From Candidatus Dormiibacterota bacterium (GTDB lineage: Bacteria > Chloroflexota > Dormibacteria > Aeolococcales > Bog-877), in assembly GCA_027319585.1 (NCBI GenBank), contig DAHVMY010000002.1:27155-91154 (forward strand): a stretch of 64,000 nucleotides of DNA, given 5' to 3'. Positions 1,384 to 44,058 of this stretch are shown here, piece by piece. The translations under genes were made by a program, and so were the position numbers. The first letter of the stretch is position 1, and each line of letters starts with the position of its first letter. The notes beneath the pieces are model-generated. The model saw only the letters and a program-made list of their open reading frames with translations. It did not search any database and was not told where the DNA came from.

Positions 1384-1480
1384 TGGCGGGAGGCGAGGGG
1401 AACGATCCCTCCGGGGACGCGATGTCGCGCCCCCCATCGATTTTGAAGATCGAGGGGCCCACCTGGACCCATGCACTCCC
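1384..1480 (-). tRNA. selC: candidate selenocysteine tRNA (anticodon UCA), 97 nt, ending GCCA
   Basis: Folded by hand on the minus strand. It has a 6-bp D-stem (GGGTCC/GGGCCC with one G-U) and a 4-nt D-loop. The anticodon arm is TCGAT-CTTCAAA-ATCGA, and the loop is identical to E. coli selC (CUUCAAA). There is a 9-bp variable-arm stem with a 4-nt loop. The T-stem is 5 bp (GAGGG/CCCTC). The acceptor is 5' GGGAG(T)GC paired with 3' GCCTCCC, followed by G and CCA (7 bp plus one bulged T). The T-loop ATCGTTC is non-canonical. It lies 537 nt upstream of selA on the same strand. Confidence 0.6.
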
Positions 1481-1804: not shown

Positions 1805-3895
1805 GTGACACGCGCGATGAGCGGCTGGTCGGCGCGGGGGCCTCAATTGGCGGCAGTCGCGCTCGCGGTCCTTTCAAGTGGCTGCGCTCTGCCGCGCAAC
1901 GCTTCGACCACCGCTGGAGCGACCCACCCGATCGTGCTGCCGGCCCACCCGCCTCCCACCATCTCCGCGATCTCGTTCCCGACTGCGCGTGACGGCTGGA
2001 TGGCACTGTCCTCGTCGGGATCGGCTTCCCCCCAGACCGCCCAGTCAATCGTGACCACCAGCGATGGCGGCTCCACCTGGCACACCAGCTGGAAGGGTGG
2101 GCTGTTCCCGTTCTTCTCGACGTCCGCCGGTGCCGAGGCGGGCTGGGTCCTGGCGGGAGAGTCGCTCGCCTGCGGACAGCCGGGCACTCCCCCCGCCGAC
2201 TGCCCGTCGTCAGTGCTGCTGGCGACCGCCGATGGCGGCACCAGTTGGCACCAGCTGCCAGCGATGCCGACTCCGGTCTGGCAGGTCGCATTCGCCACCA
2301 CCGAACTCGGGATCGCTGCGACCGCGCCCAGCTGCAGGGCCGAGGCCTCCCTCTCCGGCGCCCCATGCCCCGGTGCGGTCCTGCTGACCACCGATGGTGG
2401 GGTGCACTGGAGTACCACGCTGCGGACAACTGGCTTGGTGAGCGCGATCGCGGCACGCGGCGACACCCTCTGGGCGGTGACGGGAGTCCCCGGTCTCGAA
2501 GGGGTGACCGGGTCGCCGCACCTGCTGGTGATGCGCAGCGGGGATCAGGGCGGGACGTGGACCCAGGTGGCCAGCCTGGGGCCTCTCTCCCAGATCGGTC
2601 CTGGGCTGGAGGCTCGCCTTCAACTGGGACCTGGAGGCGAGATGTGGCTCAGCTACCTGGAGCAGGACAGCTGTGCCATGCACGGGTGCTCCGTCGGCGG
2701 CTTCGAGAGCGTGGATGGCGGCCTCCGCTGGCGCGCCAACGGACCACCGGATCCCACTCCGCAGGCGGAGTGCGGTGACTTTGCGCCGCCGGGAGCGGTT
2801 GCCATCGCGCCGACCGGAACGGTGATAGGCACCTACCAGAGCAGCCTCGCCACCTGTGAGGCACCGGCGGCATTCCTTTCGAAGTTGGTCGATGGAGAGT
2901 GGCGGCCCGTCCACCGCTGGAACTTCTTCCAGCCGCGGGAGCTCACCTATCCCAGCGCCGAGGTGGGATACGGGGAGAATGGGTCCGCGCTGCTGGCGAC
3001 CCGGGATGGGGGGGCCACCTGGACCCAGGTCTGGCCCGGGCTCAGCCCCACCGGCGGGCTGGATGCCATCTCCAGCGCCATTGCCTTCGGGTACGGCAGC
3101 CTGGGCTCGGACAGCTCGGTCCTGGAGACCCGGGACTCAGGGCGGAGCTGGAGCTTGGTGAGCCAGCTCCCCACCCAGGTCCTGGCCCTGGACATGATCG
3201 GGCCCGAGGTGGGATTCGCCGCCGCCGCAGGCACAGGAGCCGCGCTCCAGTCCTTCGATCTCTACCGCACAGCCGACGGCGGTCGCAGCTGGACCATGGT
3301 CGGTCCGGGCTTCCCCCTTCAGGGCTGGGGGGTGCTCGGACTGTGGCTCACGGCGTCGGGAAGCGGTGTGGGCGCGATCGCCGGCACCGAGGAGGGGACC
3401 GGGTTGCCCTACCCGACGGGATTCTTCGCCGCCAGTGACGGCGGCCGCCGCTGGGAACCGGAGGGCAGCCTTGCCAGCGGCTACAACCTCGTCACCAGCG
3501 CGACCTTCAAGCGGCTCGGGGCAGGGCGATGGCTGGGGCTGGCAGAGGTCAATCACGGCAGGGGCACCGAGCTCGAGGAGTCGCAGGACCTGGGCCACAC
3601 CTGGTCGCTCGTGCCAGGGGCGCCGACCCGCCTGGCCGCGCTCGACCTCAGCGGGGATCGGGGATCGGTGGTCGCCGCGCAGGTCGGAGCCGGAGACAAC
3701 CCCCTTGTCCGAATCTACCTCGCCTCGACCGCCGGCGGTAAGTGGCGCCCGGCGGCGGCTCGCCCGGCCGTGGCTCGGGGCGGAGCCCTCAGCGCGCCCG
3801 ACATCTCCATCGCCAACTCGGAAACGGTGTGGCTGCTGACGGCCGGAGCGGTGTGGGAGACGACCGACGGGGGCGCGAGCTGGCGGCCGGCGTGA
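1805..3895 (+). CDS. secreted lipoprotein with at least 10 BNR/Asp-box repeats (S-x-D-x-G-x-T-W)
   Basis: A 696-aa ORF. The N-terminus has a signal peptide and lipobox (AVLSSGC). Repeats include TSDGGSTWH, TADGGTSWH, TTDGGVHWS, SGDQGGTWT, SVDGGLRWR, TRDGGATWT, TRDSGRSWS, TADGGRSWT, ASDGGRRWE and TTDGGASWR. This is the beta-propeller architecture of sialidase- or Ycf48-like proteins. Confidence 0.8.
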   Translation: MTRAMSGWSARGPQLAAVALAVLSSGCALPRNASTTAGATHPIVLPAHPPPTISAISFPTARDGWMALSSSGSASPQTAQSIVTTSDGGSTWHTSWKGGLFPFFSTSAGAEAGWVLAGESLACGQPGTPPADCPSSVLLATADGGTSWHQLPAMPTPVWQVAFATTELGIAATAPSCRAEASLSGAPCPGAVLLTTDGGVHWSTTLRTTGLVSAIAARGDTLWAVTGVPGLEGVTGSPHLLVMRSGDQGGTWTQVASLGPLSQIGPGLEARLQLGPGGEMWLSYLEQDSCAMHGCSVGGFESVDGGLRWRANGPPDPTPQAECGDFAPPGAVAIAPTGTVIGTYQSSLATCEAPAAFLSKLVDGEWRPVHRWNFFQPRELTYPSAEVGYGENGSALLATRDGGATWTQVWPGLSPTGGLDAISSAIAFGYGSLGSDSSVLETRDSGRSWSLVSQLPTQVLALDMIGPEVGFAAAAGTGAALQSFDLYRTADGGRSWTMVGPGFPLQGWGVLGLWLTASGSGVGAIAGTEEGTGLPYPTGFFAASDGGRRWEPEGSLASGYNLVTSATFKRLGAGRWLGLAEVNHGRGTELEESQDLGHTWSLVPGAPTRLAALDLSGDRGSVVAAQVGAGDNPLVRIYLASTAGGKWRPAAARPAVARGGALSAPDISIANSETVWLLTAGAVWETTDGGASWRPA

Positions 3896-14274: not shown

Positions 14275-14447
14275 AGCCGGGCGCCCGGCCAGCCGGCGGC
14301 GGTACCCGGCGTCGATCGGGAGAAATGGCGGTTGCGGGGTCCACCCCGATATAATCCGGCAGCTTGGGCCGCCACCGCTGGCACGATCAGGCCCGCCCCA
14401 ACAGTTCTCAGGAAGTCTTGCCGCGCGGCTGGGAGGTCATCGCGCTC

Positions 14448-16490
<2,043 letters not shown>

Positions 16491-23704: not shown

Positions 23705-25318
23705 TCAGGGACCGCCTCCAGCCCCCGTCCTGTGAGCGGGGGTGGGAGCGGCCAGCAGCGATCTCAGCCGTTCGAGCAGGGCGACCCCGACAGGGCTGCC
23801 CCATCCGCTGCAGGCGTTCCAACCGGGGTGCGCCGAGTAGGCTCCGTTGCTGCCATCGACCACTTCGCGGGTTACCCCTTCGGGGGCCAACTGCTGGTAC
23901 AGAAGCGGGTTCAGGTGGCCCAGGTCCCGGCCTACGGCGCCCGCGCAGATCGCGACCAGCGCCGCCAACAGCGGCGCCACCGCGCTGGTGCCACCGAAGA
24001 CCGCCGCCTGCTGGTCCACCAGGACGCGGTAGCCGGTCTCAGGGTCCGCGTCGCCGGCCAGATCCGGCAGGCCCCGGCCGTGGAAGTGGCCCGGATTGAC
24101 CGACGGCGGCACCCCAATCCCCACCTGCCAGCTGGGCAGCGGAAACACCGCGCTCACCCCGCCCCCGGTCGCGCCGTCCTGGGGCTGGTCGTTCCACACC
24201 ACCTCACTTTCGATAGCGCCGGCTGCCGCCACCAGGCGGGTGCCTCCGCAGGCGAGCACGTAGGGGCTCGCCGCCGGGTAGTCCACATGGGCCAGGCCGT
24301 CGTTGAGGCCGTCCCCGGAGCCGTTGTCGCCCGCGGCGACGCAGACCGTCATACCCACCAGTGCGGCATCCTGAAATGCGTGCTCGAACGCCTGCACGGT
24401 GGCCGCCGGCCAGCCCGCTTCGGGGCCGCCCCAACTGATCGAGAGGACGGTGGGGGTGTTCTCCTGGTCATGAACCGCGGCCGACACCGCGGCCAGGAAC
24501 CCCTGGTCGGTGTTGGGGGCGAAGTAGACCGCCAGCTTGGCATCAGGTGCGACGGACCCTGCAACCTCGAGGTCGAGAGCGACCTCCCCGTCCGGCCCGT
24601 TGGGATCTCCGGTGGGCCGGTTGGCACCGCCGTCGACCGGAACCGGCACCACGGTCGGAGGCGCCAGGCCAAGGCCGGCGAAGTAGCTCTGGAGATCCGC
24701 AGGTTGGTACCCTCCTCCCAGCTCCAGCAGGCCGATGCACCGGCCCCGGGCCCAGCTCGAAGCCGGATAGCGGTAGACAGCGGCCACCTGGGTTGGATAG
24801 AAGCTCAGCGGGGCCGCCTGGTTGAGGGGCATGGGCGAGCTCGGCAGAGGCAGCCGCCGCAGCCGGGGCGGCATAAATGGCCCGGAGTCCAGACCGAGCA
24901 CCGCCACCACCACCTCGGTCAGATCGACGGGAACAACCGGTCCTGATAGCACTCTTCGGCGCGGCGGGGTGGTGGTGGCGTCGGTCTCGAACTGCGCCCC
25001 GAACAATGACGAGATCTGGGTCAGAGGTGCCGCCAGCACCACCTCGCGTCGTTCCGGCCGGGTCCTGACCACGCGCAGGCCACGGGTCGCCGCCCAGCTC
25101 CGAACGGTCGTGATGTCACCGGGGCTCGCTCCCCGCAGCTGCCCCAACTCCGAACGAGCGACAAAGCCGCCAGTTGAGACTGACTCGGCGCCTTCCCCGC
25201 CGATCCCGGCAACGGCTCTGTCCGTGCGCGGGCGCAGGATCAGTGTGAACTCGAGATCTGGCTCGGGCGGCCCGCTCGGCGCCTCCTGTCGGCCAGGTGG
25301 GGGCAGTTGACCACTCAT
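23705..25318 (-). CDS. sedolisin (S53 serine-carboxyl peptidase, kumamolisin-like) with an N-terminal pro-domain
   Basis: The catalytic serine motif is GGTSAVAPLLAALVA. The Glu/Asp region is GEVALDLEV, and ISWGGPE is also present. The start is ATG 25318 (MSGQLPPPGRQ). The longer ORF-track call overlaps the next gene. I found no signal peptide. Confidence 0.8.
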   Translation of the reverse strand: MSGQLPPPGRQEAPSGPPEPDLEFTLILRPRTDRAVAGIGGEGAESVSTGGFVARSELGQLRGASPGDITTVRSWAATRGLRVVRTRPERREVVLAAPLTQISSLFGAQFETDATTTPPRRRVLSGPVVPVDLTEVVVAVLGLDSGPFMPPRLRRLPLPSSPMPLNQAAPLSFYPTQVAAVYRYPASSWARGRCIGLLELGGGYQPADLQSYFAGLGLAPPTVVPVPVDGGANRPTGDPNGPDGEVALDLEVAGSVAPDAKLAVYFAPNTDQGFLAAVSAAVHDQENTPTVLSISWGGPEAGWPAATVQAFEHAFQDAALVGMTVCVAAGDNGSGDGLNDGLAHVDYPAASPYVLACGGTRLVAAAGAIESEVVWNDQPQDGATGGGVSAVFPLPSWQVGIGVPPSVNPGHFHGRGLPDLAGDADPETGYRVLVDQQAAVFGGTSAVAPLLAALVAICAGAVGRDLGHLNPLLYQQLAPEGVTREVVDGSNGAYSAHPGWNACSGWGSPVGVALLERLRSLLAAPTPAHRTGAGGGP

Positions 25319-29622: not shown

Positions 29623-30254
29623 CGGGATCCTCCCAATCGACCACCGCCCTGCCGATCCCCCGCGCGGCTCTCTGCTCCTGCGGGCTCAGGCTTGCGTCGG
29701 CAGGAGCCAGCCCTACCATGATCCCGCAGTCGCCGGTGGGAGCGGGGGTCACGCGGCCACGAGTTTGTTCCCGGGCAGCTGAAACACGGTCATCGTCATC
29801 GTGAGAACAGTGGCCGACCCAGGCTGCGATGCCTTCGTCCACGCCTGGTTCCTCATCCGAGCAGCATTCGGCTACGGCGCTGACCTGAAGTCTCACGACT
29901 CCCAGTCTCGGCACGTCCGCCCCGGATTCCTGGGGGAAGGTGGACACCGACTCTTGCCCCCGCTGGGGTCAGGATGCGGCGACGGGCTTGGGCCCGAGGA
30001 CCGGAGACAATCCAAGAGCGCACCGGGTCGGGCAGATCCCCGGGACAGACCACAGGGCAGTGCTCCCGAGGCGCCGGGAATCAGGGCAGCGCGCCCACCG
30101 GTTTGACCCCCGCGCCGCCCCACCAGTAAGCTACATGCCAGTTGAGCGGCGATGGGGCTCGCCGCGGCATCCGTGCCGAGACGCTCCGTGCTGGAGCTAA
30201 TGGCCCCTGGCTTCGGTTGATTTTCGTGTCTGAAGGAGCTAGGGCCAGCTTGGA

Positions 30255-31226
30255 GTGGCGTTCGGACCGGTGCGCCCCGTGGTAGCCGCCGCCGTTGGAC
30301 AGGTGGTAGCTGTCCTGGTGGTGCTGATGCTCTCGCCCCTGCTGCGAGGGGTGATCGAGAACCTCAAGGCGAAGGTGCAGTCGCGCCAGGGCTCGCCGTG
30401 GCTACAGCCCTATTTCGATCTCTGGAAGCACCTGCACAAGCAGCGCAGTCGCACGGTGCACAGTTCGACCGTCTCCACGGTCGCGCCGTACGTGGTCTTC
30501 GCCACTCCGATCGCGTTTGCGATCCTGATCCCGGTGCTGACCGCGGCACCTCTCAGTTGGGCCTTCATGGCCGACATGGTCGGAAGCGGGTTCGTCATCG
30601 GCATCGGCGGTTTCTTCACCAACCTCGCCGCCATGGACGGCGGGAGTCCCTACGGTGGACTCGGAAGCAGCCGGTCCCGGTTCGTGTCAACGCTTGCCGA
30701 ACCGACATTCATCGTGGTTTTCTTCGCCGTCGGTTTCATTTCCGGAGGCACGGTGCCGTTCGTGGTCAACAACGCGCTCTTCACCAGCGCTGCCCGCGTG
30801 GTGCCCAGCCACGCGCTGGTGGCCGCAGCGTTCCTGATGGTGATCTTGGCGGAGGCGGGGCGGCTCCCCATCGACAACCCCAATAGCTCGCAGGAGCTGT
30901 CGATGATCGAAGGCTCCCGCCTCTACGAGTTCTCCGGGCCTGATCTGGCGCTCTTTGAGTGGGGCGGCCACATGAAGTTGTTTGTTCTGCTCATCGTCTG
31001 GCTCAATGTGCTGGTCCTACCGCTGGGTCTGGCGCAGGCCATCACGGTGCCCGCGTTCCTGGTGGCGATTGCGTCTCTGATGGGAAAGATGCTGGCCGCG
31101 GCCGTCCTGGTGGTGGGAATCGAGTCGGCTTTGGCCAAGATCCGCATCATGCGCGTGCCTGAGTACCTGGGAGGCAGTTTCGTGCTCGCCTTTCTGGGCC
31201 TGGCCCTCTACACGGTGGGACATTGA
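30255..31226 (+). CDS. HycD/NuoH-like membrane subunit of a group-4-hydrogenase-like (Ehr-type) complex
   Basis: It is an eight-TM protein. The N-terminal LKAKVQSRQGSPWLQPYFDLWK is typical of HycD/HyfC/NuoH. A GTG start is preceded by GAAGGAG. Confidence 0.8.
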   Translation: MAFGPVRPVVAAAVGQVVAVLVVLMLSPLLRGVIENLKAKVQSRQGSPWLQPYFDLWKHLHKQRSRTVHSSTVSTVAPYVVFATPIAFAILIPVLTAAPLSWAFMADMVGSGFVIGIGGFFTNLAAMDGGSPYGGLGSSRSRFVSTLAEPTFIVVFFAVGFISGGTVPFVVNNALFTSAARVVPSHALVAAAFLMVILAEAGRLPIDNPNSSQELSMIEGSRLYEFSGPDLALFEWGGHMKLFVLLIVWLNVLVLPLGLAQAITVPAFLVAIASLMGKMLAAAVLVVGIESALAKIRIMRVPEYLGGSFVLAFLGLALYTVGH

Positions 31227-31891
31227 CGGCACTGAGTGCGATGCCCCGGCTGCTTGAGGTGATCCTGTCGGCGCTCCTCCTGCTGGTCACCTACTGGTTC
31301 ATCGTGACGCGGCGGCTCAGCACCGCGGTGGCCGCCTACGCGGTCCAGTCGTGGCTCCTGGGGCTCGCGGCTCTGATCCTTTACTGGGACACCCGCCTAC
31401 TGGGACTGCTGGTCTTCGGACTGCTGATCATCGTCGCCAAGGGGATCCTGATCCCGAGCCTCTTCCGGCGCCAGGTAGCGTTCGCTCTGGTTGCCGGCAG
31501 AGAAACCGCCTACTACGTCCGCTTTCCTACTGCGCTGCTGATCGGGACGGCGCTGAGTCTGGTCGGTCTGCTCGCGGCCACCGACCTTCCGTTCGTGCCG
31601 CAGCTTCTTCCACCTGCGATCGCCGGCATCGCCCTGGCGGTCTTCCTCCTTGGCCTCTTCACAACCATCGCTCGGCGTGACGCCATCCTGCAGGTGACCG
31701 GGCTACTGGCAGCCGAGAACGGGCTGCTGCTGCTGAGCCTGGTGGTGGCCCCCCAGCTCAGCCTCCTGATCGAGGTGGCGATTGTGTTGGACGTGCTCAT
31801 CGCGGTGCTGGTGATGGGCTTCCTGGTGGCCCGCATGCGGGATGCCGGCACCGGGACAGACACCTCCGAGCTCTCCCGGCTGCGCGGATGA
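31223..31891 (+). CDS. HyfE-like small membrane subunit
   Basis: It is a 222-aa polytopic membrane protein. Its start overlaps the upstream stop. The size and position match hydrogenase-4 component E. Confidence 0.65.
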   Translation: MTALSAMPRLLEVILSALLLLVTYWFIVTRRLSTAVAAYAVQSWLLGLAALILYWDTRLLGLLVFGLLIIVAKGILIPSLFRRQVAFALVAGRETAYYVRFPTALLIGTALSLVGLLAATDLPFVPQLLPPAIAGIALAVFLLGLFTTIARRDAILQVTGLLAAENGLLLLSLVVAPQLSLLIEVAIVLDVLIAVLVMGFLVARMRDAGTGTDTSELSRLRG

Positions 31892-33372
31892 CCAACAGCA
31901 GTCTCATGTTGGCGGTGCTGGCGGTTCCCCTGCTGGGGGGACTTGCCAGCCTGCTGGCCCTCAGCGACCGGACCCGCTTCCTCCTGGTGGTCCCGACTGG
32001 GGTGGCCACCCTGGCGCTGGGCCTCACCCTGATCGCTCGGGTTGTCCAATCCGGCCCGGTGGCCGGGCTGAACCAGTGGCTCTACGTCGATGACCTTGAT
32101 GCCGTGGTGCTGCTGGTGGTCGTGGTGGTGGCCGCGCTGGCGGGAGCCTACTCCGTGGCCTATTTCCGCAGCCCCGCCCAGGCCCACGCTATGCGGCCCG
32201 GCGAGATCCGCAAGTATTTCAGCCTCTTCCACTTCTTCACCTTCACCATGGTCCTGGCGACTGTGGCGGGGAACCTGATCCTGCTCTGGACCGCCGTGAC
32301 CGCCACCACGTTTGCAGCCGCGCCCTTGGTCGATTTCTATGGCTCCCATGAGCCCCTGGAGGCGGCCTGGAAGTTTCTCGTGCTCGCGGTCGCAGGCGAA
32401 CTGATCGCGCTCCTGGGCTTCTTCCTGTTATTCGAAGCTGGGATCGCCGCCCTCGGCGCCAGCTATAACTTCTCGATCCCGGTGCTGGACCGTGCGGGAC
32501 CCCATCTCAACGGGGCCTTGGGGGGAATCGGCTTCTTGATGGTGCTGGTGGGCTTCGGAACCAAGGCCGGCCTGGCTCCGATGCACACCTGGCTGCCCGA
32601 CGCCCACAGCCAGGCACCCGCTCCCGTCTGCGCCATGCTGTCTGGGGCGGAGTTGAATTGCGCGATGCTGGCCATCATCAGAGTCCTCGCTTTGGTCACT
32701 CCAGCCAGCCCCGCGCACGCCCGCGGCCTGCATGAGGCGCTGCTGGCCTTTGGGCTGCTGTCCATGGTGGTCGGGGTCGTGTTCCTCATCGCCCAGCGCA
32801 ACTTCAAGCGCCTGCTGGCGTACTCCTCCGTTGAGCAGATGGGCCTGATCGCGGCCGGCTTTGGCCTGGGGGCTCCCATCGCGACGCTGGGGGCGGCACT
32901 GCAGATGATCACTCACAGCCTTGCCAAGAGCCTCATGTTCTTCAATTCCGGCAACCTGCTGCTGCGCTTCCGCACCACCACGGTGGCGGAGATTTCGGGA
33001 GCCATCCGAGTAGCCCCGGCGTCGGCCATCCTGGTGATCACGGGGGCACTGGCGATCGCGGGAGCGCCCCCGTTCGGGCTCTTCATCTCCGAGTTCGCCA
33101 TCATTGAGGGGGCCCTGGTACGACATGCCTGGGCGGTGGCAGCGGGGCTCGGGGTGCTGTTGCTGGTCGCATTTTTGGCCCTCCTGGAACCGTTCAACCG
33201 CATGGTGTTCGGCACTGGCAGGGGAGAGCCGGTGCCGGCGCGATCCGAGCTGGGCCTGGCGGTGCTGGTGCCGGGCTACCTGCTCCTGGGCGGATTGTTG
33301 GTGCTGGGTGTCTGGATTCCCGGTCCGCTGCACTCGCTGCTCGTGGGTGCCAGTCGAGTTGCCATGAGATGA
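31888..33372 (+). CDS. NuoN/HyfF-like antiporter-type membrane subunit
   Basis: It has the Mrp/NuoLMN antiporter-fold motifs GFGTKAGLAPMHTWLPDAH and PVCAMLSGAELN. Start and stop overlap the neighbouring genes. Confidence 0.8.
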   Translation: MTNSSLMLAVLAVPLLGGLASLLALSDRTRFLLVVPTGVATLALGLTLIARVVQSGPVAGLNQWLYVDDLDAVVLLVVVVVAALAGAYSVAYFRSPAQAHAMRPGEIRKYFSLFHFFTFTMVLATVAGNLILLWTAVTATTFAAAPLVDFYGSHEPLEAAWKFLVLAVAGELIALLGFFLLFEAGIAALGASYNFSIPVLDRAGPHLNGALGGIGFLMVLVGFGTKAGLAPMHTWLPDAHSQAPAPVCAMLSGAELNCAMLAIIRVLALVTPASPAHARGLHEALLAFGLLSMVVGVVFLIAQRNFKRLLAYSSVEQMGLIAAGFGLGAPIATLGAALQMITHSLAKSLMFFNSGNLLLRFRTTTVAEISGAIRVAPASAILVITGALAIAGAPPFGLFISEFAIIEGALVRHAWAVAAGLGVLLLVAFLALLEPFNRMVFGTGRGEPVPARSELGLAVLVPGYLLLGGLLVLGVWIPGPLHSLLVGASRVAMR

Positions 33373-34919
33373 CCGGGTCTGCAGGCATGATGGCGATCGC
33401 CACAGCTGTGGGACTTTCGGCGCACAGCGGAGCCCGCAATGAGTGGGTGGTCGACTGCCCGGCTTCGGAACTGGCCCCGAGGTTGCGCCGGCTGGTCGAG
33501 GAGCTGACTCTGGTCGACCTGTTCGCGACCACCGCCAAGGGATCTCGCCCACGACTCACCGCGGTGCTGGATGCGCCCGGCGACCCCGCCTGGCTGGTGG
33601 TCCACTGCGATCTGCCCGAGGCGGCATTCCCGAGCTTGAGCGCGGTCTCCCATGCCGCTAGCTGGTACGAGCGCGACATTCTGGAGATGCACAAGGTGAT
33701 GCCACAGGGGCATCCCGCCCCCTATCCCCTGCGCCAGGGGAAGTCGGGAGAGCCCGGGCCGAAACGGGCTGGTGGGGCGGCTGGCGCGGGGGACGACTCG
33801 GGGCAGCGGCCCAAGCAGCGCCCAGCCGTGACCGGCCAAGGGGTCTTTGAGCTCCCTTTGGGCCCGGTTCGAAGCGGCCCCCAGGAATCCCAGGGGTTCA
33901 GCTTCTTCTCCGGAGGAGAGGACATCGTCGTCACCGACATCACCCTGGGTTTCAAATTCCGGAGTGTCGAGCGAATCGCCGAAGGTCGCGCTCCGGCCGA
34001 CGTCATCTTGCTCGCGGAGCGGATTGCGGCGTCGTCCTGCTTCGCCAACGCCCTGGCATTCTCGAGAGCGGTGGAGCGGGTGATTGGGGCCGAGGTCACC
34101 CCGTCGGAGCAGTTCACCCGCACTCTCCTGGCCGAACTGGAGCGGGCCTACAACCATCTGGGAGTGATCGGGCGGCTGGCCGAGGCGACTGGTCTGCAGG
34201 TCGCCGCCGCCCAATTCAGCCTGATGAGAGAGCGGGCTCTACGCGCCTCCGGACGGCTCACCGGGCACCGCTACCTTCGAGGCGCGCTGCGGATTGGAGG
34301 TACCGAAGTGGTGCCACCGGAGGGGGACCGGGTTTGGCTGCGCTCCGAGGTCGAGGCGTGGCGGAGCCAAGCCCTCCGCCTGCGTCACCTGCTTGAAGGG
34401 ACCTCCACCTTCGTCGACAGGCTCGACACCACCGCGTACTTGGATCCCGGCTATGCCGCCGAACACAACCTGGTGGGTCCGGTGGGGCGGGCCAGTGGGA
34501 TCGACAGCGACCTGCGCCGCGACCATCCCTACGGCGCCTATTCAGCAGTGGAGTTCGTAGTTCCGCTGCTGTCCCTGGGCGATGCCAAGGCCCGTTACAC
34601 CGTCCACGTGATGGAGCTGGAGCAAACGCTGGGAGTGCTGCTCCAGCTGCTCGACCGCTGGCCCCACGCGCAGCCACCGGCTCCGCTTCCCAAACTGCGT
34701 TCTGGCTCCGCGCTGGGGTGGGCGGAGGCTCCCGGAGGGGCAACTGTCCACCTCGTGACCCTGGACGAGGGCGGGCGCGTCGCGAGGTGGCGGGCCCGTC
34801 CGCCTGCAGTCGTGAACTGGCACCCATTCGCGCACGCGTGCGCGAGCGGCAACAACCTCACCGATTTCCCGGTCATCGAAGCGAGCTTCGGGCTCGCGAG
34901 TGCGGAGTTCGATAGATGA
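33369..34919 (+). CDS. NuoC-NuoD-fused 'large subunit' homologue lacking the NiFe-binding cysteines
   Basis: The NuoC-like signature is WYERDILEMHKV. The L1 motif RxCGxCxxxH reads ERIAASSCFANALAF here. The C-terminus is ASFGLASAEFDR (NuoD-like, GEVDR) instead of DPCxxCxxR. Confidence 0.8.
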   Translation: MTGSAGMMAIATAVGLSAHSGARNEWVVDCPASELAPRLRRLVEELTLVDLFATTAKGSRPRLTAVLDAPGDPAWLVVHCDLPEAAFPSLSAVSHAASWYERDILEMHKVMPQGHPAPYPLRQGKSGEPGPKRAGGAAGAGDDSGQRPKQRPAVTGQGVFELPLGPVRSGPQESQGFSFFSGGEDIVVTDITLGFKFRSVERIAEGRAPADVILLAERIAASSCFANALAFSRAVERVIGAEVTPSEQFTRTLLAELERAYNHLGVIGRLAEATGLQVAAAQFSLMRERALRASGRLTGHRYLRGALRIGGTEVVPPEGDRVWLRSEVEAWRSQALRLRHLLEGTSTFVDRLDTTAYLDPGYAAEHNLVGPVGRASGIDSDLRRDHPYGAYSAVEFVVPLLSLGDAKARYTVHVMELEQTLGVLLQLLDRWPHAQPPAPLPKLRSGSALGWAEAPGGATVHLVTLDEGGRVARWRARPPAVVNWHPFAHACASGNNLTDFPVIEASFGLASAEFDR

Positions 34920-35761
34920 GCCGATGGATTCTCCGGGGTTTGCGCAGCGGAATCCGTACCACCCGCTTCCCGAGTCCGACCCCGCCGTACGAGGAAGGAG
35001 CGAGTTCCACGGTCCGCCTGCAGTGGCAGCGACTCAGCGCCCCGGATGCTCTGGCCGCAGCCCAAATGTGCCCTAGCGGAGCGATCCAGGCGCAGGGTAC
35101 GGAAGTGGAGGGAGAGCTGACCTACGATGCGGGACGATGCATCATGTGCGGCCGCTGCGCCCGGCACCTCCCGCAAGTTTTCCTGCCGGTGAAGGATGGC
35201 CGGGTGGCGGTGCGCCAGCGGAGCAGCCTGGTCACCAGGGTGGGATGGAGCGCGGCTAACCGGCCTCTGCCGCTCGAGTTGGGCCGAGCGGCGGAGGAGG
35301 TCCGCCAGCGAGCGGTCAGGATCTTTCGTCACTCCCTCCACATCCGCCATGTGGATGCCGGATCCTGCAACGGCTGCGAGTCTGAGTTGCAGATGCTGAC
35401 CGGACCCTACGCGGACCTGCATCGGCTGGGCATATTCTTCACGCCGACCCCTCGTCACGCGGATGTCCTGCTCGTGACCGGGGTGGTCACCGTCAACATG
35501 GAGCGGCCTCTCATGGAGACCTATGCGGCGATGCCTGAACCCAAGTTGGTGATCGCAGCTGGGGTTTGCGCGGTCAGTGGCGGCAGCTTCGCCGGAGGCC
35601 CGGTCACCCGGGGTCCGGTGGACCGCCTGCTCCCGGTCGATGTCCACATCCCCGGATGCCCTCCCACGCCCCAGGCCATGCTCCACGGTCTGCTGCTGGC
35701 GATGAATCGGGCAGAGGACAGACCTGGACCTGAGCCTGAGGAGGTGGCTGATGGCGCTTGA
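34916..35761 (+). CDS. NuoB/HycG-like small subunit fused to an N-terminal single-cluster ferredoxin-like domain
   Basis: GSCNGCE, GVCAVSGG and HIPGCPP supply the four Cys of the N2-type cluster. RHADVLLVTGVVT is also present. The N-terminal domain has CPSGAI and CIMCGRCARHLP. Confidence 0.8.
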   Translation: MSRWILRGLRSGIRTTRFPSPTPPYEEGASSTVRLQWQRLSAPDALAAAQMCPSGAIQAQGTEVEGELTYDAGRCIMCGRCARHLPQVFLPVKDGRVAVRQRSSLVTRVGWSAANRPLPLELGRAAEEVRQRAVRIFRHSLHIRHVDAGSCNGCESELQMLTGPYADLHRLGIFFTPTPRHADVLLVTGVVTVNMERPLMETYAAMPEPKLVIAAGVCAVSGGSFAGGPVTRGPVDRLLPVDVHIPGCPPTPQAMLHGLLLAMNRAEDRPGPEPEEVADGA

Positions 35762-37841
35762 GCTCCTGGCAGCCGCCCTGGCATGCTATGCGGTCGCCAG
35801 CCTGCTCGGCCTCGGGGTGCTGTGGTGGCGTGGATTCGCCGAGCTATCGGCTGCGGCGGGGTTCGTGGCCGGCCTGCTCGGAGTGGGCACCGCCGCGGTC
35901 TGGCTGGGCGGGGGGCGTGGCGTCCTGCTCTTACCGGTAAGCACGCCATTGGGTGGCTTCACGGTGGCAGCCACCCCGCTGGCGGCTACCTTCGTGCTCC
36001 TCACGGGGGTGGTGAGCAGCGGCCTGTCGTTGTTCACGGCAGGCTACACACCGCATGTTGGCGGTGCCTTGCGCCAGGCCTGCGTCCACTCGTTGCTCAA
36101 TATCACGTTTGCGGCGGTCATCCTGGTGCTGGCGGCCGCAAATGCCCTCACGTTCTTGGTGGCGTGGGAGACGATGGTGATCGCAACCTACGTGCTGGTC
36201 ACGGTCGAGTTCGATCGGCCGGGCCGGCCTCAGGCCGCGTTTCTGATGCTGGCGCTTTCCAAACTCGGATTCATCGCGATCGCCGGCGGCTTTGCCGCAA
36301 TGGGCGCTCTGCGCAGCGGGGTCTCCTTCGCCACCCTCGCCCGTCATCCGGCACCTGGAGCGGGGCTGGCTTCGATCGTCTTTCTGTTGTTTTTGATAGG
36401 GTTCGGGGTCAAAGCTGGCCTGGTACCGCTGCAGGGGTGGCTCACCGAGGCACATCCGGCGGCACCCGCCAACGTATCCGCGGCGCTGTCCGGGGTCGTG
36501 GTCGCCGTTGCCATCTACGGCTTGGTCCTGACCGTCTTGACCTTGCTCGGCCCGCCCTCCGCCTGGTGGGGCTATCTCACCCTGGGTGCAGGGGTCATCA
36601 CCGCCCTCTACGGAGTGCTGTTCTCACTGGTGGTGCCCAACTTCAAGCGGATGTTGGCCTACAGCACCATCGAGAACCTGGGCTTCATGATCGCCATGGT
36701 GGGCCTGGCACTGGTGTTCATCAGCAGTCATCAGCCGCTCCTGGGGGCTGCCGCGCTGGTGGTTGCGATCCTGCACGCGCTGTACCACGGCCTGCTCAAG
36801 AGCACCGCCTTCATGGGCGCGGGTTGCATTGACGTAGCTACCCATGGCCTTGATCTGGATCGTCTCGGAGGTCTGGCCCGGCGCATGCGGTGGTCCACGT
36901 TGCTCTTCTTCGTGGCCGCCATGGGTCTGGCCGGGATCCCGCCGCTGAACGGCTTTCAAACGGAATGGCTGGGACTCCAGATGCTGATTCGATCGCGCAT
37001 CCTGGCCACCCCCGAGAGCCGCCTCTACCTGGCCGGAGCCGGACTGCTGTTGACGCTCACGTTCGCCCTGGCCACCACCGCCTACGTCCGGGTCTTCGGG
37101 GGTGCCTTCCTAGGCGCACCGCGGAGCCGGGAGGCCCGCCAGGCACGCGAGGTGCCCTGGACCATGCGGCTCGGTATGTTCGTAACCGCCGCCGCCGCCG
37201 TGGTCACCGCTCTGGTGCCGGCAATCGGCATCGGCGCCGCAGTCACCTCCGCCTCGGCAGTCACACGCGTGCCTCAGCTCTTGAACGCCCTGCTTCCGCC
37301 GATCTTCCTGAAGCCCCAGCAGTTCGCACTGCCCGCGCGCCTGGGGGGCACATTCCTGAGCCAGATTCTTCCCGGCAACGGGGTGGTGATCACCCCAACC
37401 AGTTTCAACTACGCGTTCATCTCGCCTCCATACATTCTGCTCAGCCTGCTGGCGGTGATCGGGCTGACCGCGGGCGCAATCCACCTGCTGGGCCGCGGCG
37501 AACCCATGCGGCGGGACCCCTGGGTCGGTGGCGGGAGCAGCTTCCGGCCGTCGATGCAGTACACCGCCACCGGTTTCACCAACCTATTCCGCTCGACCTT
37601 CGGAAGGGTCTTTCGGGATCGGCGCACAGTCGCCCAGGAGTACCACCAGTCGCCTTACTACGCCCATTCGGTCAGCTACGAGCGCAGGGTGGTGGAACCG
37701 GTCGAGACCTATCTCTACCGTCCCGTGGTTCTAGCGGCCCGGCAGCTGTCGGCTCGGTTCGGCGTGATCCAAGGGGGGAACGTCGGTCTGTACCTGCTCT
37801 ACGTGGTCGCGGTCTTCGTAATTCTGCTGCTGATCCACTGA
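35751..37841 (+). CDS. NuoL/HyfB-like antiporter-type membrane subunit
   Basis: It is 696 aa long with about 16 TM helices. The antiporter-fold motifs are GFGVKAGLVPLQGWLTEAHPAAP and NVSAALSGVV. Confidence 0.8.
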   Translation: MALELLAAALACYAVASLLGLGVLWWRGFAELSAAAGFVAGLLGVGTAAVWLGGGRGVLLLPVSTPLGGFTVAATPLAATFVLLTGVVSSGLSLFTAGYTPHVGGALRQACVHSLLNITFAAVILVLAAANALTFLVAWETMVIATYVLVTVEFDRPGRPQAAFLMLALSKLGFIAIAGGFAAMGALRSGVSFATLARHPAPGAGLASIVFLLFLIGFGVKAGLVPLQGWLTEAHPAAPANVSAALSGVVVAVAIYGLVLTVLTLLGPPSAWWGYLTLGAGVITALYGVLFSLVVPNFKRMLAYSTIENLGFMIAMVGLALVFISSHQPLLGAAALVVAILHALYHGLLKSTAFMGAGCIDVATHGLDLDRLGGLARRMRWSTLLFFVAAMGLAGIPPLNGFQTEWLGLQMLIRSRILATPESRLYLAGAGLLLTLTFALATTAYVRVFGGAFLGAPRSREARQAREVPWTMRLGMFVTAAAAVVTALVPAIGIGAAVTSASAVTRVPQLLNALLPPIFLKPQQFALPARLGGTFLSQILPGNGVVITPTSFNYAFISPPYILLSLLAVIGLTAGAIHLLGRGEPMRRDPWVGGGSSFRPSMQYTATGFTNLFRSTFGRVFRDRRTVAQEYHQSPYYAHSVSYERRVVEPVETYLYRPVVLAARQLSARFGVIQGGNVGLYLLYVVAVFVILLLIH

Positions 37842-41778: not shown

Positions 41779-44058
41779 ATGGCTGACCCAAGCCCGCGGA
41801 GACCCTGGGGACGTCCCCGGCCTTTGCCTTGCTGGGGGCGGGTGGCGCTCACCATCGTCGCCTTGGCGATCGTGGCGGTGGGCGGCGAGTTCTCGAGCTT
41901 CGCCGGCGGCCAGGAGCCGGAGTTGAGTCACCAGTACTCAAGCCCGACCGGCCCACTGGCGCCGGGCGTCTGGAGCTGGGCCACCCAGAGTGGCAGGGCC
42001 ATCACCATCCGAGAGCGCTCATATCGTCTTGCGCTCACCCGCACGACCGACCTTCTCTCGGTGAGGGCCTCCGGGTCCTCGTACGCGTTCCCGATGGCGG
42101 CCCTCATCGGCCGCGCCCAACTGCCCGCGAGGGCTCGTTTCGTGGCGACGACCGACCAGTCGGAGCTGCGGCTCTACATCTTCACCGCAGGTGGCAAGCT
42201 CCTCGAACGCGCTGTCCTCGACGCCCGGCCCAGCTACTTCACGATCAGCTTCGAAGCCCTCCTGGGCCGCGATCACCTGGCCGCGCCGACGTTCCTCTCC
42301 AACGGCACCCGAGGACTGCCCCTTGCCTTCCTCCGCCACGCCTTCAGTCCGGACCCGGTGTCCCCATCCCTCGCGCCGACCCCCACCACCTATCTCGGCG
42401 TGCACCATCCGTTCCACACCGCTCCCTTTGCCCCGCCGCCATTCCAACTCTGCTTCCAAGCCGGCGCGAGGTGGACCGGGGTCGGCTTGGTGCAAGTGCC
42501 GGACGCGACCGCTCTGGCGCTGACTCGACGGGGCGGCGTGTATGTCAACTACCCGTTGACCGAGCTGGCCACGATCCGGGACCGAGGGGCCGGGGGGCGC
42601 GTGAGCCCACCCCAGGCGGTCCCGGCGACGGGCGCTGCCGGCATCTGGCTCGGGTTCCCCTCCCTGGTGTTCACCTTCGGCCGGACTCCGGGGCTGACCC
42701 TGCTGTCCTACCAGGCCGCCCTTGCCCGCATGGGGGAGGCACCGGTGCCCGGGAACGCCAGCCACCCCCCGGCATGGTGGGCCTGGCCCATGGTCGACAC
42801 ATGGGGACAGCAGCTGGTGGCCGGTGCAGCCCGGACCTCGCAGCGGTACACCGCCGCCTGGGTCCAGCGCTTTGTGCAGCAGTGGCGGCAGCGGTTCGAG
42901 GTCCGTCACTTCACTGTGATTCTGGACGCCCAGTGGCAGGCCCGCCTGGGCTATGCCATCCCCAGCGCTCGCTTCGGCGGGGTGCAGGGTATGCGTCAAC
43001 TGATCCGCCGGCTGCAGGCGCAGGGCCTCAAGGTGATGCTCTGGTGGCCACTTTGGAAGCAGGAGAGCAGCCACGGCAGGCGCAGCCGTGTGGACCCCAC
43101 CTCCCCCACCTTCCCGGCCCTCACAACCCGGCAGATGGATGAACTCCTGGGAACCGGGCCTGGGGAACTCGGCGCCAACGGCCTCAAACTGGACTGGGGC
43201 TTCCTGGTGCCGCCACCCAACCTTGAGCGGATCGACCGGCCCGAGCTCGGCATCGGCGCCGCCCTCCTGCTGCGCTACATGCGGCTGCTGTCCGGCGCGG
43301 CGTGGCAGGCGGATCCCCAGGCGCTGATCGACGCGAGCGCCGTGGCGCCGCAGTTCGGCGCCACCGAGGACACCCTGCGCCTGTACGACGCCGCCCGAGC
43401 CTCCACCTGGAGCTACCGCGCTGCGATCGTCAGCGCGGTGGACCCCAATCGCCTCATCGACGGGGATGGCTGGCGTCTCAGCCGATCGCAGGCGGTCGCG
43501 CACACCGTGGAGAGCGCGGTCTTCGGGATCCCGGCCATGTACTACGCGACGCGCTGGTCTGGTGGCCACCCGATCTCTTTGACTCTGGCCCGCGCGTTGG
43601 GCTCAGTCCTGTCGCTGGGCCAGCAGCGAGGCAGGAACGGCCAGGCCAGGCTGGCCGCCTCGGGCCGGTGGACGTATGAGGTGGGTGGCCGCCTTCGCGC
43701 CGCCACGCTGGCCCACGCTCGAGCGTTGGTGGTGTACCGGTACTCCCGCGGGGGCCGTCTGACCCAGGCGATCGTGGTCAGCGCCCTCACCACCAACCTC
43801 CAGATCGGGTCGGTCGGTCACAGCCGTCCCAGCGGCGTGACCGACCCCGGCGGAGGGAGGGTTATCTACCACCGCGACGGCAGCGTCCTGGACTTCCTAG
43901 CCCGAGCTGGGGATCGCTACGTGGTGCGGTACCTGAGCCCGGGGCCGGTGGTGGCTCCCCGACCCGGCAGCCGGGTGTCCACCGAGGAGGAGTTCCAAGC
44001 CTCCGGCGGCGGCATGGCCCCGGGGTACTGGCGCCCCTTCGTCGGGGCGACCTCATGA
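41779..44058 (+). CDS. large secreted or membrane-anchored protein with a TIM-barrel glycoside-hydrolase-like core (clan GH-D / alpha-galactosidase-like?)
   Basis: The N-terminus has a TM or signal segment. The ordered motifs PMVDTWG, FTVILDAQW, GLKVMLWWPLW and GLKLDWGF mimic the WNSW, DDGW, GxKxGLW and LKxD blocks of GH27/GH36. The family assignment is tentative. Confidence 0.55.
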   Translation: MADPSPRRPWGRPRPLPCWGRVALTIVALAIVAVGGEFSSFAGGQEPELSHQYSSPTGPLAPGVWSWATQSGRAITIRERSYRLALTRTTDLLSVRASGSSYAFPMAALIGRAQLPARARFVATTDQSELRLYIFTAGGKLLERAVLDARPSYFTISFEALLGRDHLAAPTFLSNGTRGLPLAFLRHAFSPDPVSPSLAPTPTTYLGVHHPFHTAPFAPPPFQLCFQAGARWTGVGLVQVPDATALALTRRGGVYVNYPLTELATIRDRGAGGRVSPPQAVPATGAAGIWLGFPSLVFTFGRTPGLTLLSYQAALARMGEAPVPGNASHPPAWWAWPMVDTWGQQLVAGAARTSQRYTAAWVQRFVQQWRQRFEVRHFTVILDAQWQARLGYAIPSARFGGVQGMRQLIRRLQAQGLKVMLWWPLWKQESSHGRRSRVDPTSPTFPALTTRQMDELLGTGPGELGANGLKLDWGFLVPPPNLERIDRPELGIGAALLLRYMRLLSGAAWQADPQALIDASAVAPQFGATEDTLRLYDAARASTWSYRAAIVSAVDPNRLIDGDGWRLSRSQAVAHTVESAVFGIPAMYYATRWSGGHPISLTLARALGSVLSLGQQRGRNGQARLAASGRWTYEVGGRLRAATLAHARALVVYRYSRGGRLTQAIVVSALTTNLQIGSVGHSRPSGVTDPGGGRVIYHRDGSVLDFLARAGDRYVVRYLSPGPVVAPRPGSRVSTEEEFQASGGGMAPGYWRPFVGATS

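Follow-up and report, generated by a model that had tools for sequence, protein, structure and literature searches.

This report concerns a six-gene operon in a 64,000-nucleotide window (the whole stretch of DNA that was analysed, about 69% G+C) of contig DAHVMY010000002.1 from a Candidatus Dormibacterota bacterium. Its fourth gene, at 33369-34919 on the forward strand, encodes a fused NuoC-NuoD large subunit in which the ligands of the nickel-iron (NiFe) site of hydrogenases have been replaced. With a probability of roughly 0.55, we read the operon as encoding a six-subunit, Hyf-type, NiFe-less complex of the energy-converting-hydrogenase-related (Ehr) class that lies behind a fluoride-type aptamer and would serve as a fluoride-induced, iron-sulfur-driven H+/Na+ pump. 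The new point is the control of one clade of such complexes, called GPxR below, by fluoride riboswitches; the NiFe-less Ehr class itself is already known.

The large subunit and its former nickel-iron site

The open reading frame (ORF) at 33369-34919 (+) translates into a 516-residue protein that contains WYERDILEMHKV and LLAERIAASSCFANALAF and ends with VIEASFGLASAEFDR followed by a stop codon; it was characterized by translation, Pfam, HMMER, MAFFT, and AlphaFold. Pfam places a weak Complex1_30kDa (NuoC) match at the N-terminus together with a Complex1_49kDa (NuoD) match, in agreement with an original prediction that had described a NuoC-NuoD fusion as in HycE. A sub-threshold NiFeSe_Hases match spans residues 198-264 only, and none of the NCBIfam models is reached at its curated cut-off. 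The G+C content at third codon positions (GC3) is coding-like along the whole gene.

The HMMER alignment of this protein to Escherichia coli HycE (7z0s_E, E=6e-41) has no gaps across the L1 region, where 'aeriaasscfanalaf' in the query faces 'sdrvcgicgfahstay' in HycE; the register is therefore secure. An identical register was obtained with MAFFT in an alignment of 151 sequences that includes E. coli HycE, HyfG, and NuoCD. In this alignment, Cys1 of L1 has become Ala, Gly has become Ala, Cys2 has become Ser, and His has become Asn, and at L2, where HycE has DPCYSCTDR and the window protein has GLASAEFDR, Cys3 is Ala and Cys4 is Glu. In other words, the four Cys ligands of the group 4 [NiFe]-hydrogenase motifs RxCGxCxxxH (L1) and DPCxxCxxR (L2) are missing, and the Ala, Ser, and Asn that the original prediction had assigned to Cys1, Cys2, and His of the proximal motif were recovered in both alignments. 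The multiple alignment with HycE, HyfG, and NuoCD confirmed the register, and a check for mis-registration, with four conserved Cys lying elsewhere in the protein, revealed that no alternative Cys set exists. Additionally, the Arg of the DR motif, after which HycE is processed, is the last residue of the protein, which therefore has no C-terminal extension. Judged by these alignments, the large subunit cannot bind NiFe through the canonical ligands.

All four NiFe Cys are likewise absent in 120 of the 120 best homologues, and the lone Cys in AASSC is not conserved (3/120 homologues). When 1.84 billion cluster representatives were searched exhaustively with HMMER, 328 proteins were returned at E<=1e-30; in the best 150 of these, the set of four Cys is complete in about 27 and absent in about 115. 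There are two Cys-less classes. One is Hyq-like, with the loop GPVHAGIIEPGHF and the ending ...NKSFNLSYSGxDL; the other, 'GPxR', has GPVRSG/ADVxES and the ending ...IEASFGLSxAG.., and the window protein belongs here. Its closest named relatives come from metagenome-assembled genomes of Candidatus Dormibacterota, and 24 metagenome contigs encode the identical protein within the same six-gene operon. Members of the Dormibacterota clade (48-69% identity) carry ER[LIV]AGxSxFxNxLAF at L1 and end in ...SxAEFDR, and members of a Ktedonobacteria/Chloroflexota clade (about 40% identity) carry ERISGTSAFAHSLAL at L1 and end in ...FAGADC/R. Across 51 sequences of 37-69% identity, 70 columns are invariant, among them the beta1-beta2 loop PLGPVRSG.QES and RRDHPY; Arg168, Glu173, and Arg383-Arg384-Asp385-His386 are invariant residues. 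To judge from these comparisons, Cys loss is a fixed trait of the family, neither chance nor decay.

How close, then, is this protein to complex I? The original prediction held that its substitutions are of the NuoD type, and this claim stands in part. The equivalent columns of E. coli NuoCD hold Glu/Tyr/Gly/Asn (L1) and Val/Asp (L2); the change of His to Asn and the acidic residue at Cys4 are shared with NuoD, whereas the column of the quinone-ligating Tyr of complex I (T. thermophilus Y87) is Ala in the window and Gly in relatives. At the C-terminus, for which a NuoD-type ending had been proposed, DPCxxCxxR is indeed gone and the Cys4 position is acidic. Overall, the likeness to NuoD and NuoCD comprises a shared fold (template modelling (TM) scores of 0.82-0.85), the absence of the NiFe Cys, and Ser, Asn, and an acidic residue at three former ligand positions. 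On the other side of the comparison, the beta1-beta2 loop, GPVRSGPQESQGF, lacks the His (T. thermophilus H38) of the NuoCD loop GPNHPSAHGAF (GPxHPxxHG); the small subunit has a hydrogenase-type SCNGCE (CxxC), not the tandem Cys of NuoB that ligate cluster N2; and the NuoE/F/G N-module is absent from the six-gene operon. The quinone Tyr/His and tandem-Cys N2 criteria for complex I were taken from PMC4758237.

The sequence scores also separate the window protein from complex I. HycE reaches 144 bits, MbhL 115, Aquifex NuoCD 105, MbsL (6u8y_L) 101, and E. coli NuoCD 65; the match order among solved relatives is HycE, MbhL, Aquifex NuoCD, MbsL, Thermus Nqo4, and E. coli NuoCD, and group 4 hydrogenases with all four Cys reach up to 246 bits. 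The AlphaFold model (predicted local distance difference test (pLDDT) 84.8, predicted TM score (pTM) 0.87) has HycE 7z0s_E as its best structural match (TM 0.82, 25% identity), with E. coli and Aquifex NuoCD matching nearly as well. In a neighbour-joining tree rooted on E. coli NuoCD, which is indicative only, with one NuoCD as outgroup and without support values, HycE/HyfG branch first, followed by four-Cys and Hyq-like clades and, last, by the GPxR clade, which holds the window protein and those of Ktedonobacteria, Alicyclobacillus, Burkholderia, and Mycobacterium; the large Cys-less clade of the window protein is nested among group 4 hydrogenases, and NuoCD sits on a long outgroup branch. 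By these measures, the closest relatives of the large subunit are Hyc/Hyf-type hydrogenases, not NuoD. The NuoD-like Asn (at the L1 His) and Glu (at Cys4) are best read as lineage-specific convergence, because they are seen in the Dormibacterota clade and the sisters in Ktedonobacteria, Mycobacterium, and Burkholderia have mostly His and Gly.

The fluoride-type aptamer and its counterparts at related loci

A fluoride-riboswitch-type aptamer of 78 nucleotides lies at 30139-30216 (+), with 39 nucleotides between its end and the first start codon of the operon. It was found by a permissive scan of the 630-nucleotide gap before the operon with Rfam RF01734 (crcB motif), where it scores 23.8 bits (E=1e-4 in a 251-nucleotide search and 5e-4 in a 1.2-kb scan); the gathering score of this family is 34 bits, and at the gathering threshold Rfam reports tRNA-Sec alone in the window. 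The parts of the aptamer are P1 (GGCG/CGCC), an inserted hairpin (CGGCA/UGCCG), P3 (GCUCC/GGAGC), and a pseudoknot (GGGGC with GCCCC), and the conserved cores GAUGG and CU(A/G)AUG are present. The Rfam score is depressed by the extra hairpin of 12-14 nucleotides that is inserted after P1 and before the linker (30165-30178 in the window, with equivalents in loci L009-L062) and by the non-consensus pseudoknot (GGGGC/GCCCC vs the consensus GGAGU/ACUCC), for which a covariance model gives no credit. The extra hairpin occurs in the aptamers of Dormibacterota and some Ktedonobacteria, its sequence highly variable and its pairing always kept, and fluoride riboswitches that bear it are probably under-counted in these phyla.

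Conservation of the element is extensive. In orthologous Dormibacterota loci, a matching element (24-28 bits with RF01734) precedes the large-subunit gene by about 3.2-3.3 kb, with an inserted hairpin and P3 that vary through compensatory changes, and Ktedonobacteria-type orthologues at the same position pass the threshold (40.8 bits in L051 and 38.3 bits in L053). A custom covariance model, built from 20 elements and used to search upstream DNA, located the element at the expected position in at least 35 of the about 43 loci that have that DNA. In a covariance-model alignment of 65 sequences, 90.4% of cells pair, vs 44-46% when the partners are slid, and none of 500 shuffles reached the observed covariation score. 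The pseudoknot helix, which lay outside the search model, is 99.1% paired, with double-sided changes in 3/5 pairs and GC<->AU exchanges in 17 and 15 sequences. At the level of sequence and covariation, these data show a pseudoknotted fluoride-type aptamer before the first gene, and the 78-nucleotide RNA would act as a fluoride switch that controls expression. A long-range helix that RNAalifold proposed from the raw MAFFT leader alignment was rejected as spurious; it has no covariation, and MAFFT mis-registers the variable hairpins.

A candidate expression platform, delineated by a terminator scan, a minimum-free-energy (MFE) fold, and pairing in orthologues, occupies 30190-30248 (+). The terminator scan reports a terminator-like hairpin with a U-run at 30190-30227 that overlaps the 3' half of the aptamer. 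In the MFE fold (z=-2.8), the 3' strand of the pseudoknot and the next bases, CCCUGGCUUC, pair with GAAGGAGCUAGGG, which holds the Shine-Dalgarno sequence, and an equivalent pairing in different letters is present in orthologues (CCCCUGACCACCAU/AUGGAGGUUAGGG). Either arrangement, terminator or anti-Shine-Dalgarno, would give a fluoride ON switch. A sigma-70 promoter scan upstream of the aptamer gave no match at the stringency used.

Related loci outside of the Dormibacterota carry riboswitches of the standard kind. By tblastn of plasmids, the closest annotated relatives (35-37% identity) come from Caballeronia, Burkholderia, Alicyclobacillus, and Mycobacterium branderi; the gene order of the window, ferredoxin-NuoB fusion included, recurs in M. 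branderi and B. multivorans. Neighbours of the plasmid relatives encode DUF190, CrcB, enolase, inorganic pyrophosphatase, HAD, NUDIX, universal stress, and major facilitator superfamily (MFS) proteins. Fluoride riboswitches at gathering score lie at or beside the operon in 5/5 plasmid-borne loci of the GPxR clade, and these loci hold multiple such elements. Rfam places them before the NuoH-like gene at 3794 in B. multivorans (L007 3489-3559), before the NuoH-like gene at 2771 in B. cenocepacia (L066 2461-2531), upstream of the operon in Caballeronia (L065 2452-2522), before a NUDIX gene and then the operon in M. branderi (L001 3064-3137), and before the large-subunit gene in Alicyclobacillus (L008 6612-6672). 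On this last plasmid, from Alicyclobacillus sp. ALC3, the large-subunit homologue (L008 6612-8314, riboswitch and gene together) apparently stands alone in an incomplete gene table, and CrcB and DUF190 genes nearby each have their own riboswitch. Several Dormibacterota loci additionally have a canonical, threshold-passing riboswitch just 3' of the operon (L011, L012 11409, L018 11530, and L027 11492); in L011 (11708-13546), it precedes a gene for a 538-residue protein with a MutS domain V. Fluoride riboswitches were found in 0/5 Hyq-type loci (Rhizobium, Azospirillum, Allomeiothermus, Variovorax, and Methylocalor) and 0/2 E. coli loci (hyc and hyf). Beside the Hyq-type operon of the Candidatus Methylocalor plasmid lies an ALIL pseudoknot, a frameshift element of the IS3 family (110 bits, L069 8292-8408 (-)).

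'Formate hydrogen lyase' is listed among the genes most commonly associated with fluoride riboswitches (PMC11139923), and searches of the literature gave nothing specific joining the crcB motif or fluoride riboswitch to a hydrogenase or hydrogenlyase. Its leader RNA places the operon among these 'formate-hydrogenlyase-like' genes, one class within the fluoride regulon of bacteria. As in that class (Baker et al. 2012 per PMC11139923; RF01734), a crcB-motif aptamer lies directly upstream, and relatives are situated amid crcB, DUF190, enolase, pyrophosphatase, HAD, MutS-like, and NUDIX genes, each with its own riboswitch. There are also differences. PMC11139923 treats the genes as genuine, fermentation-linked formate hydrogenlyase, whereas the complexes here have neither a NiFe site nor a formate dehydrogenase partner, and the Dormibacterota aptamer is set apart by its extra hairpin, its GGGGC/GCCCC pseudoknot, and its sub-threshold Rfam score.

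The six-gene operon among known systems

The six ORFs form a run in which neighbours overlap by 4-11 nucleotides; the same set recurs in other loci, and on other metagenome contigs with the identical protein, all six were predicted by an independent gene caller as well. Before the large-subunit gene are those for a HycD/NuoH-like membrane subunit (323 residues, 30255-31226 (+); Pfam NADHdh 5e-26, the ORF agreed by independent gene call), a HyfE-like membrane subunit (222 residues, 31223-31891 (+); NCBIfam 'hydrogenase 4 membrane subunit' 2e-19, under the curated cutoff), and a HyfF-like antiporter-like subunit (494 residues, 31888-33372 (+); Pfam Proton_antipo_M 3e-43, NCBIfam HyfF 3e-112). 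After it come the genes for a small subunit with a ferredoxin domain and a NuoB/HycG-type domain (281 residues, 34916-35761 (+); Pfam Oxidored_q6 2e-29, Fer4_13 5e-6) and for a HyfB/NuoL-like antiporter-like subunit (696 residues, 35751-37841 (+); NCBIfam hydrogenase 4 subunit B 2e-142, under the cutoff). The start of the first gene is putative: more distant orthologues have a GUG start 5-7 nucleotides after a GGAGG Shine-Dalgarno sequence, the window and its two closest relatives have GCC or GCA at that place (30233-30257), and the first in-frame start of the window is the GUG at 30255, 15 nucleotides past GGAG. The terminator scan found no terminator after the last gene.

The small subunit has an N-terminal ferredoxin domain for one cluster (CPSGAI and CIMCGRC) and a NuoB/HycG-type domain in which all four cluster Cys are present (DAGSCNGCE, GVCAVSGG, and PGCPP); all eight iron-sulfur Cys are kept in every Dormibacterota orthologue. 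The ferredoxin domain has two clusters in Burkholderia and is absent in Ktedonobacteria. In the membrane arm, the HyfB-like subunit retains the Glu of transmembrane helix 5 (TM5), the TM7 Lys, and the TM12 Glu, and the HyfF-like subunit retains the TM7 Lys and the TM12 Glu.

Which known system does this gene set resemble most? The name Ehr denotes complexes with a group 4-related large subunit that lacks the Ni/Fe-coordinating residues (PMC6349859, PMC4758237), and Ehr has been reported in the Chloroflexi supergroup in a 2021 preprint (10.1101/2021.08.23.457424). Such a large subunit is present here, as are NuoB, NuoC/D, NuoH, and Mrp/antiporter-like homologues in one cluster (Pfam/NCBIfam, six ORFs), and coupling of cytoplasmic redox chemistry to ion translocation is suspected in both cases. 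By its gene content, the window complex is Ehr-type, neither hydrogenase nor complex I, and of a class that has been described before. Ehr is a loose collective name, however, and the window complex belongs to a distinct clade, marked by the loop GPxR...ES and the C-terminal IEASFGLSxA, whose Hyf-type subunits including HyfE, ferredoxin-NuoB fusion, and fluoride riboswitch go unmentioned in the literature searched.

The Hyq systems (hyqRBCEFGI) of Azorhizobium, Rhizobium, and Azospirillum are similar in composition. Azorhizobium Hyq has six subunits, HyqBCEFGI, and HyqG is a NuoC::NuoD fusion of roughly 504 residues without both CxxC motifs (PMC3357923); the six subunit types and the Cys-less fusion recur in the window, and HyqI keeps a CxxC...C...C cluster, as does the window small subunit. 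Orthology of the window protein to HyqG was nevertheless rejected, as motifs, neighbour-joining clade, gene order, and regulator all differ: HyqG has the loop noted above for its class, the ending NKSFNxSYSGxDL, and the conserved Cys-258/491/497, and it falls in a separate clade; the Hyq order is B-C-E-F-G-I with a regulator, HyqR, vs D-E-F-G-I-B with no regulator in the window; and a ferredoxin domain is missing from the Hyq small subunit, as is a fluoride riboswitch from Hyq loci. With E. coli formate hydrogenlyase and hydrogenase-4, the operon shares HycE as top sequence and structure match, HyfB/HyfE/HyfF as best NCBIfam matches, the NuoC-NuoD fusion, and the CxxC-type small subunit; it differs in having no NiFe ligands, C-terminal extension or protease, HycB/FdhF partner, separate HycF, HyfD, or nearby hyp genes. 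A sulfane reductase of the MBS/Mbx type was also considered and rejected, as thirteen or more subunits, a full Mrp module, and a large subunit that keeps part of the Cys set would be expected, vs the six genes here, and MbsL scores 101 bits vs 144 for HycE.

Among the ORFs scanned, from about 14 kb before the operon to about 9 kb after it, none encodes hyp, hycI, formate dehydrogenase, or CO dehydrogenase functions; the neighbours include genes for FAA hydrolase, MarR, aldo-keto reductase, M55 peptidase, amino-acid permease, and methyltransferases. About 14 kb upstream, at 14364-16490 (+), is a gene for a membrane H+-translocating pyrophosphatase (Pfam H_PPase 1e-266), an ATP-independent ion pump, with no riboswitch detected beside it. 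Elsewhere in the window, the tRNA-Sec at 1388-1480 (-) (Rfam, 55.5 bits, above threshold) implies selenoprotein synthesis in the organism, and long ORFs at 41779-44058 (+) (759 residues) and 23732-24946 (+) (404 residues) have no Pfam match; in the region of 23.7-25.8 kb, long ORFs compete on both strands.

Proposed function, rival explanations, and significance

The placement of the operon behind a fluoride-type switch suggests a role in fluoride stress. Permeation of hydrogen fluoride (HF) couples fluoride stress to pH homeostasis, and Na+/H+ antiporters are the commonest riboswitch-associated class after exporters (PMC11139923). In the mechanism that we propose, fluoride binding would lock the pseudoknot strand GCCCC, which would block the terminator-like hairpin or the anti-Shine-Dalgarno helix, and the operon would then be expressed. 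Electrons would enter at the ferredoxin-type cluster and pass through the NuoB-type cluster to an acceptor at the remodelled pocket, for which menaquinone is a candidate although the canonical ligands are absent. The redox step would power the HycD/HyfE/HyfF/HyfB arm to export H+ or Na+, and this export would compensate for the protons brought in by HF and keep up the membrane potential that powers fluoride export. Such a pump would act while glycolysis and ATP-dependent pumps are inhibited by fluoride.

Several observations weigh against this proposal. The window aptamer falls under the Rfam threshold (23.8 vs 34 bits), and the ORFs scanned in the window did not include crcB, CLC-F, or another fluoride gene. 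The operon has no linked gene for an electron donor or acceptor, and the Tyr and His of the quinone site are absent. In the HyfF-like subunit, the TM5 Glu (equivalent to NuoM E144) is replaced by Thr in LLWTAVTATT; the position is Thr/Ser/Ala in 36/36 Dormibacterota orthologues and Glu in Ktedonobacteria, Mycobacterium, Burkholderia, Hyq, and E. coli HyfF. In the HyfB-like subunit, Ala takes the place of the TM8 Lys, and because of these two replacements, ion pumping may be reduced or altered. Finally, the Cys of the NuoB-type cluster are lost in the relatives from Mycobacterium, Nocardioides, and Allomeiothermus (SNGSDE / PGAPA and similar; L001 8312-9106, L060, L063, and L067 7269-8141). By sequence, the NiFe site and the proximal iron-sulfur cluster are both gone from these complexes, and redox chemistry is therefore arguably dispensable there. 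These relatives, which keep the operon all the same, argue for the main rival reading, namely a redox-independent, Mrp-like transporter in which a fluoride-induced cation/proton antiporter arm does the work and the hydrogenase-like arm is a structural or regulatory relic. The want of a linked donor or acceptor and the frequency of Na+/H+ antiporters behind fluoride riboswitches, second among associated classes (PMC11139923), favour it as well. We nonetheless hold it to be unlikely for the window complex. The eight iron-sulfur Cys are retained there and in every Dormibacterota orthologue, the loop PLGPVRSG.QES that faces the former active site is also conserved, and conserved cluster Cys together with a conserved pocket loop indicate selection on a redox site.

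NiFe-less group 4 homologues, Ehr and Hyq, have been proposed as a link between hydrogenases and complex I (PMC4758237, PMC6349859, PMC3357923), and Hyq as an H2:quinone oxidoreductase (PMC4758237, PMC3357923). One could accordingly regard the complex, as the original prediction did, as an evolutionary and functional intermediate between the two, a minimal ferredoxin- or H2-independent quinone reductase with its large subunit on the NuoD lineage; the Ser, Asn, and Glu at three former ligand positions and a structural likeness to NuoCD that nearly equals that to HycE would fit. The comparison did not support this claim, and we regard it as quite improbable, as the hallmarks of complex I are absent (the quinone Tyr and His, the tandem Cys in place of the CxxC, and genes for NuoEFG, NuoA, NuoJ, and NuoK), scores and the indicative tree group the window protein with Hyc/Hyf-type hydrogenases, far from NuoCD, and only the Dormibacterota clade has the NuoD-like residues. 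Could the complex still be a hydrogenase with a non-canonical metal site? Genetic and physiological data tie H2 uptake and evolution to hyq in Azorhizobium, whose 'endo-hydrogenase' has a HyqG without both CxxC motifs (PMC3357923). We consider such an activity very improbable here, as no conserved Cys remains for Ni/Fe and the three conserved Hyq Cys are absent from the window protein; maturation genes are not nearby among the ORFs scanned; the window clade stands apart from Hyq in the tree and is regulated differently; and HydDB leaves out Ehr as not metabolising H2 (PMC5037454). Lastly, the loss of catalytic ligands and the missed curated family cut-offs might call to mind a decaying pseudogene, a remnant of formate hydrogenlyase. 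That account is hardly credible: the six ORFs are intact and translationally coupled, the invariant columns and coding-like GC3 speak for constraint, and operon and leader RNA are kept in dozens of genomes from several phyla.

A broader version of our preferred reading, the fluoride-induced pump, extends to the whole GPxR clade, which is present in Dormibacterota, Chloroflexota/Ktedonobacteria, Actinomycetota, Pseudomonadota, and Bacillota. Across at least five phyla, the clade may be a dedicated fluoride-stress machine, an ion pump or, in the forms lacking iron-sulfur clusters, an ion exchanger, that counters a protonophore-like cycle of HF entering and F- leaving the cell; we see this as a plausible idea that falls somewhat short of an even bet. 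Culturable hosts of the clade are Burkholderia cenocepacia and B. multivorans (plasmids), Mycobacterium branderi, and Thermogemmatispora.

NiFe-less relatives such as Ehr and Hyq have been known for about 20 years without an established function, and they are usually mis-annotated as hydrogenase or NuoC/D or treated only as links to complex I. That one large clade of them lies consistently behind fluoride riboswitches provides a concrete inducing condition and a testable phenotype for Ehr-type function. Hydrogenases are counted in metabolic reconstructions of Candidatus Dormibacterota, where this gene should not be scored as an H2-metabolising enzyme, and the 'formate hydrogenlyase' genes of the fluoride regulon need to be re-read, as the complexes examined cannot make H2 at a canonical NiFe site. 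If the clade is indeed a fluoride-stress machine, this would be the first physiological role for any Ehr-type complex, and the 'formate hydrogen lyase' entry of the fluoride regulon would have been misread since 2012.

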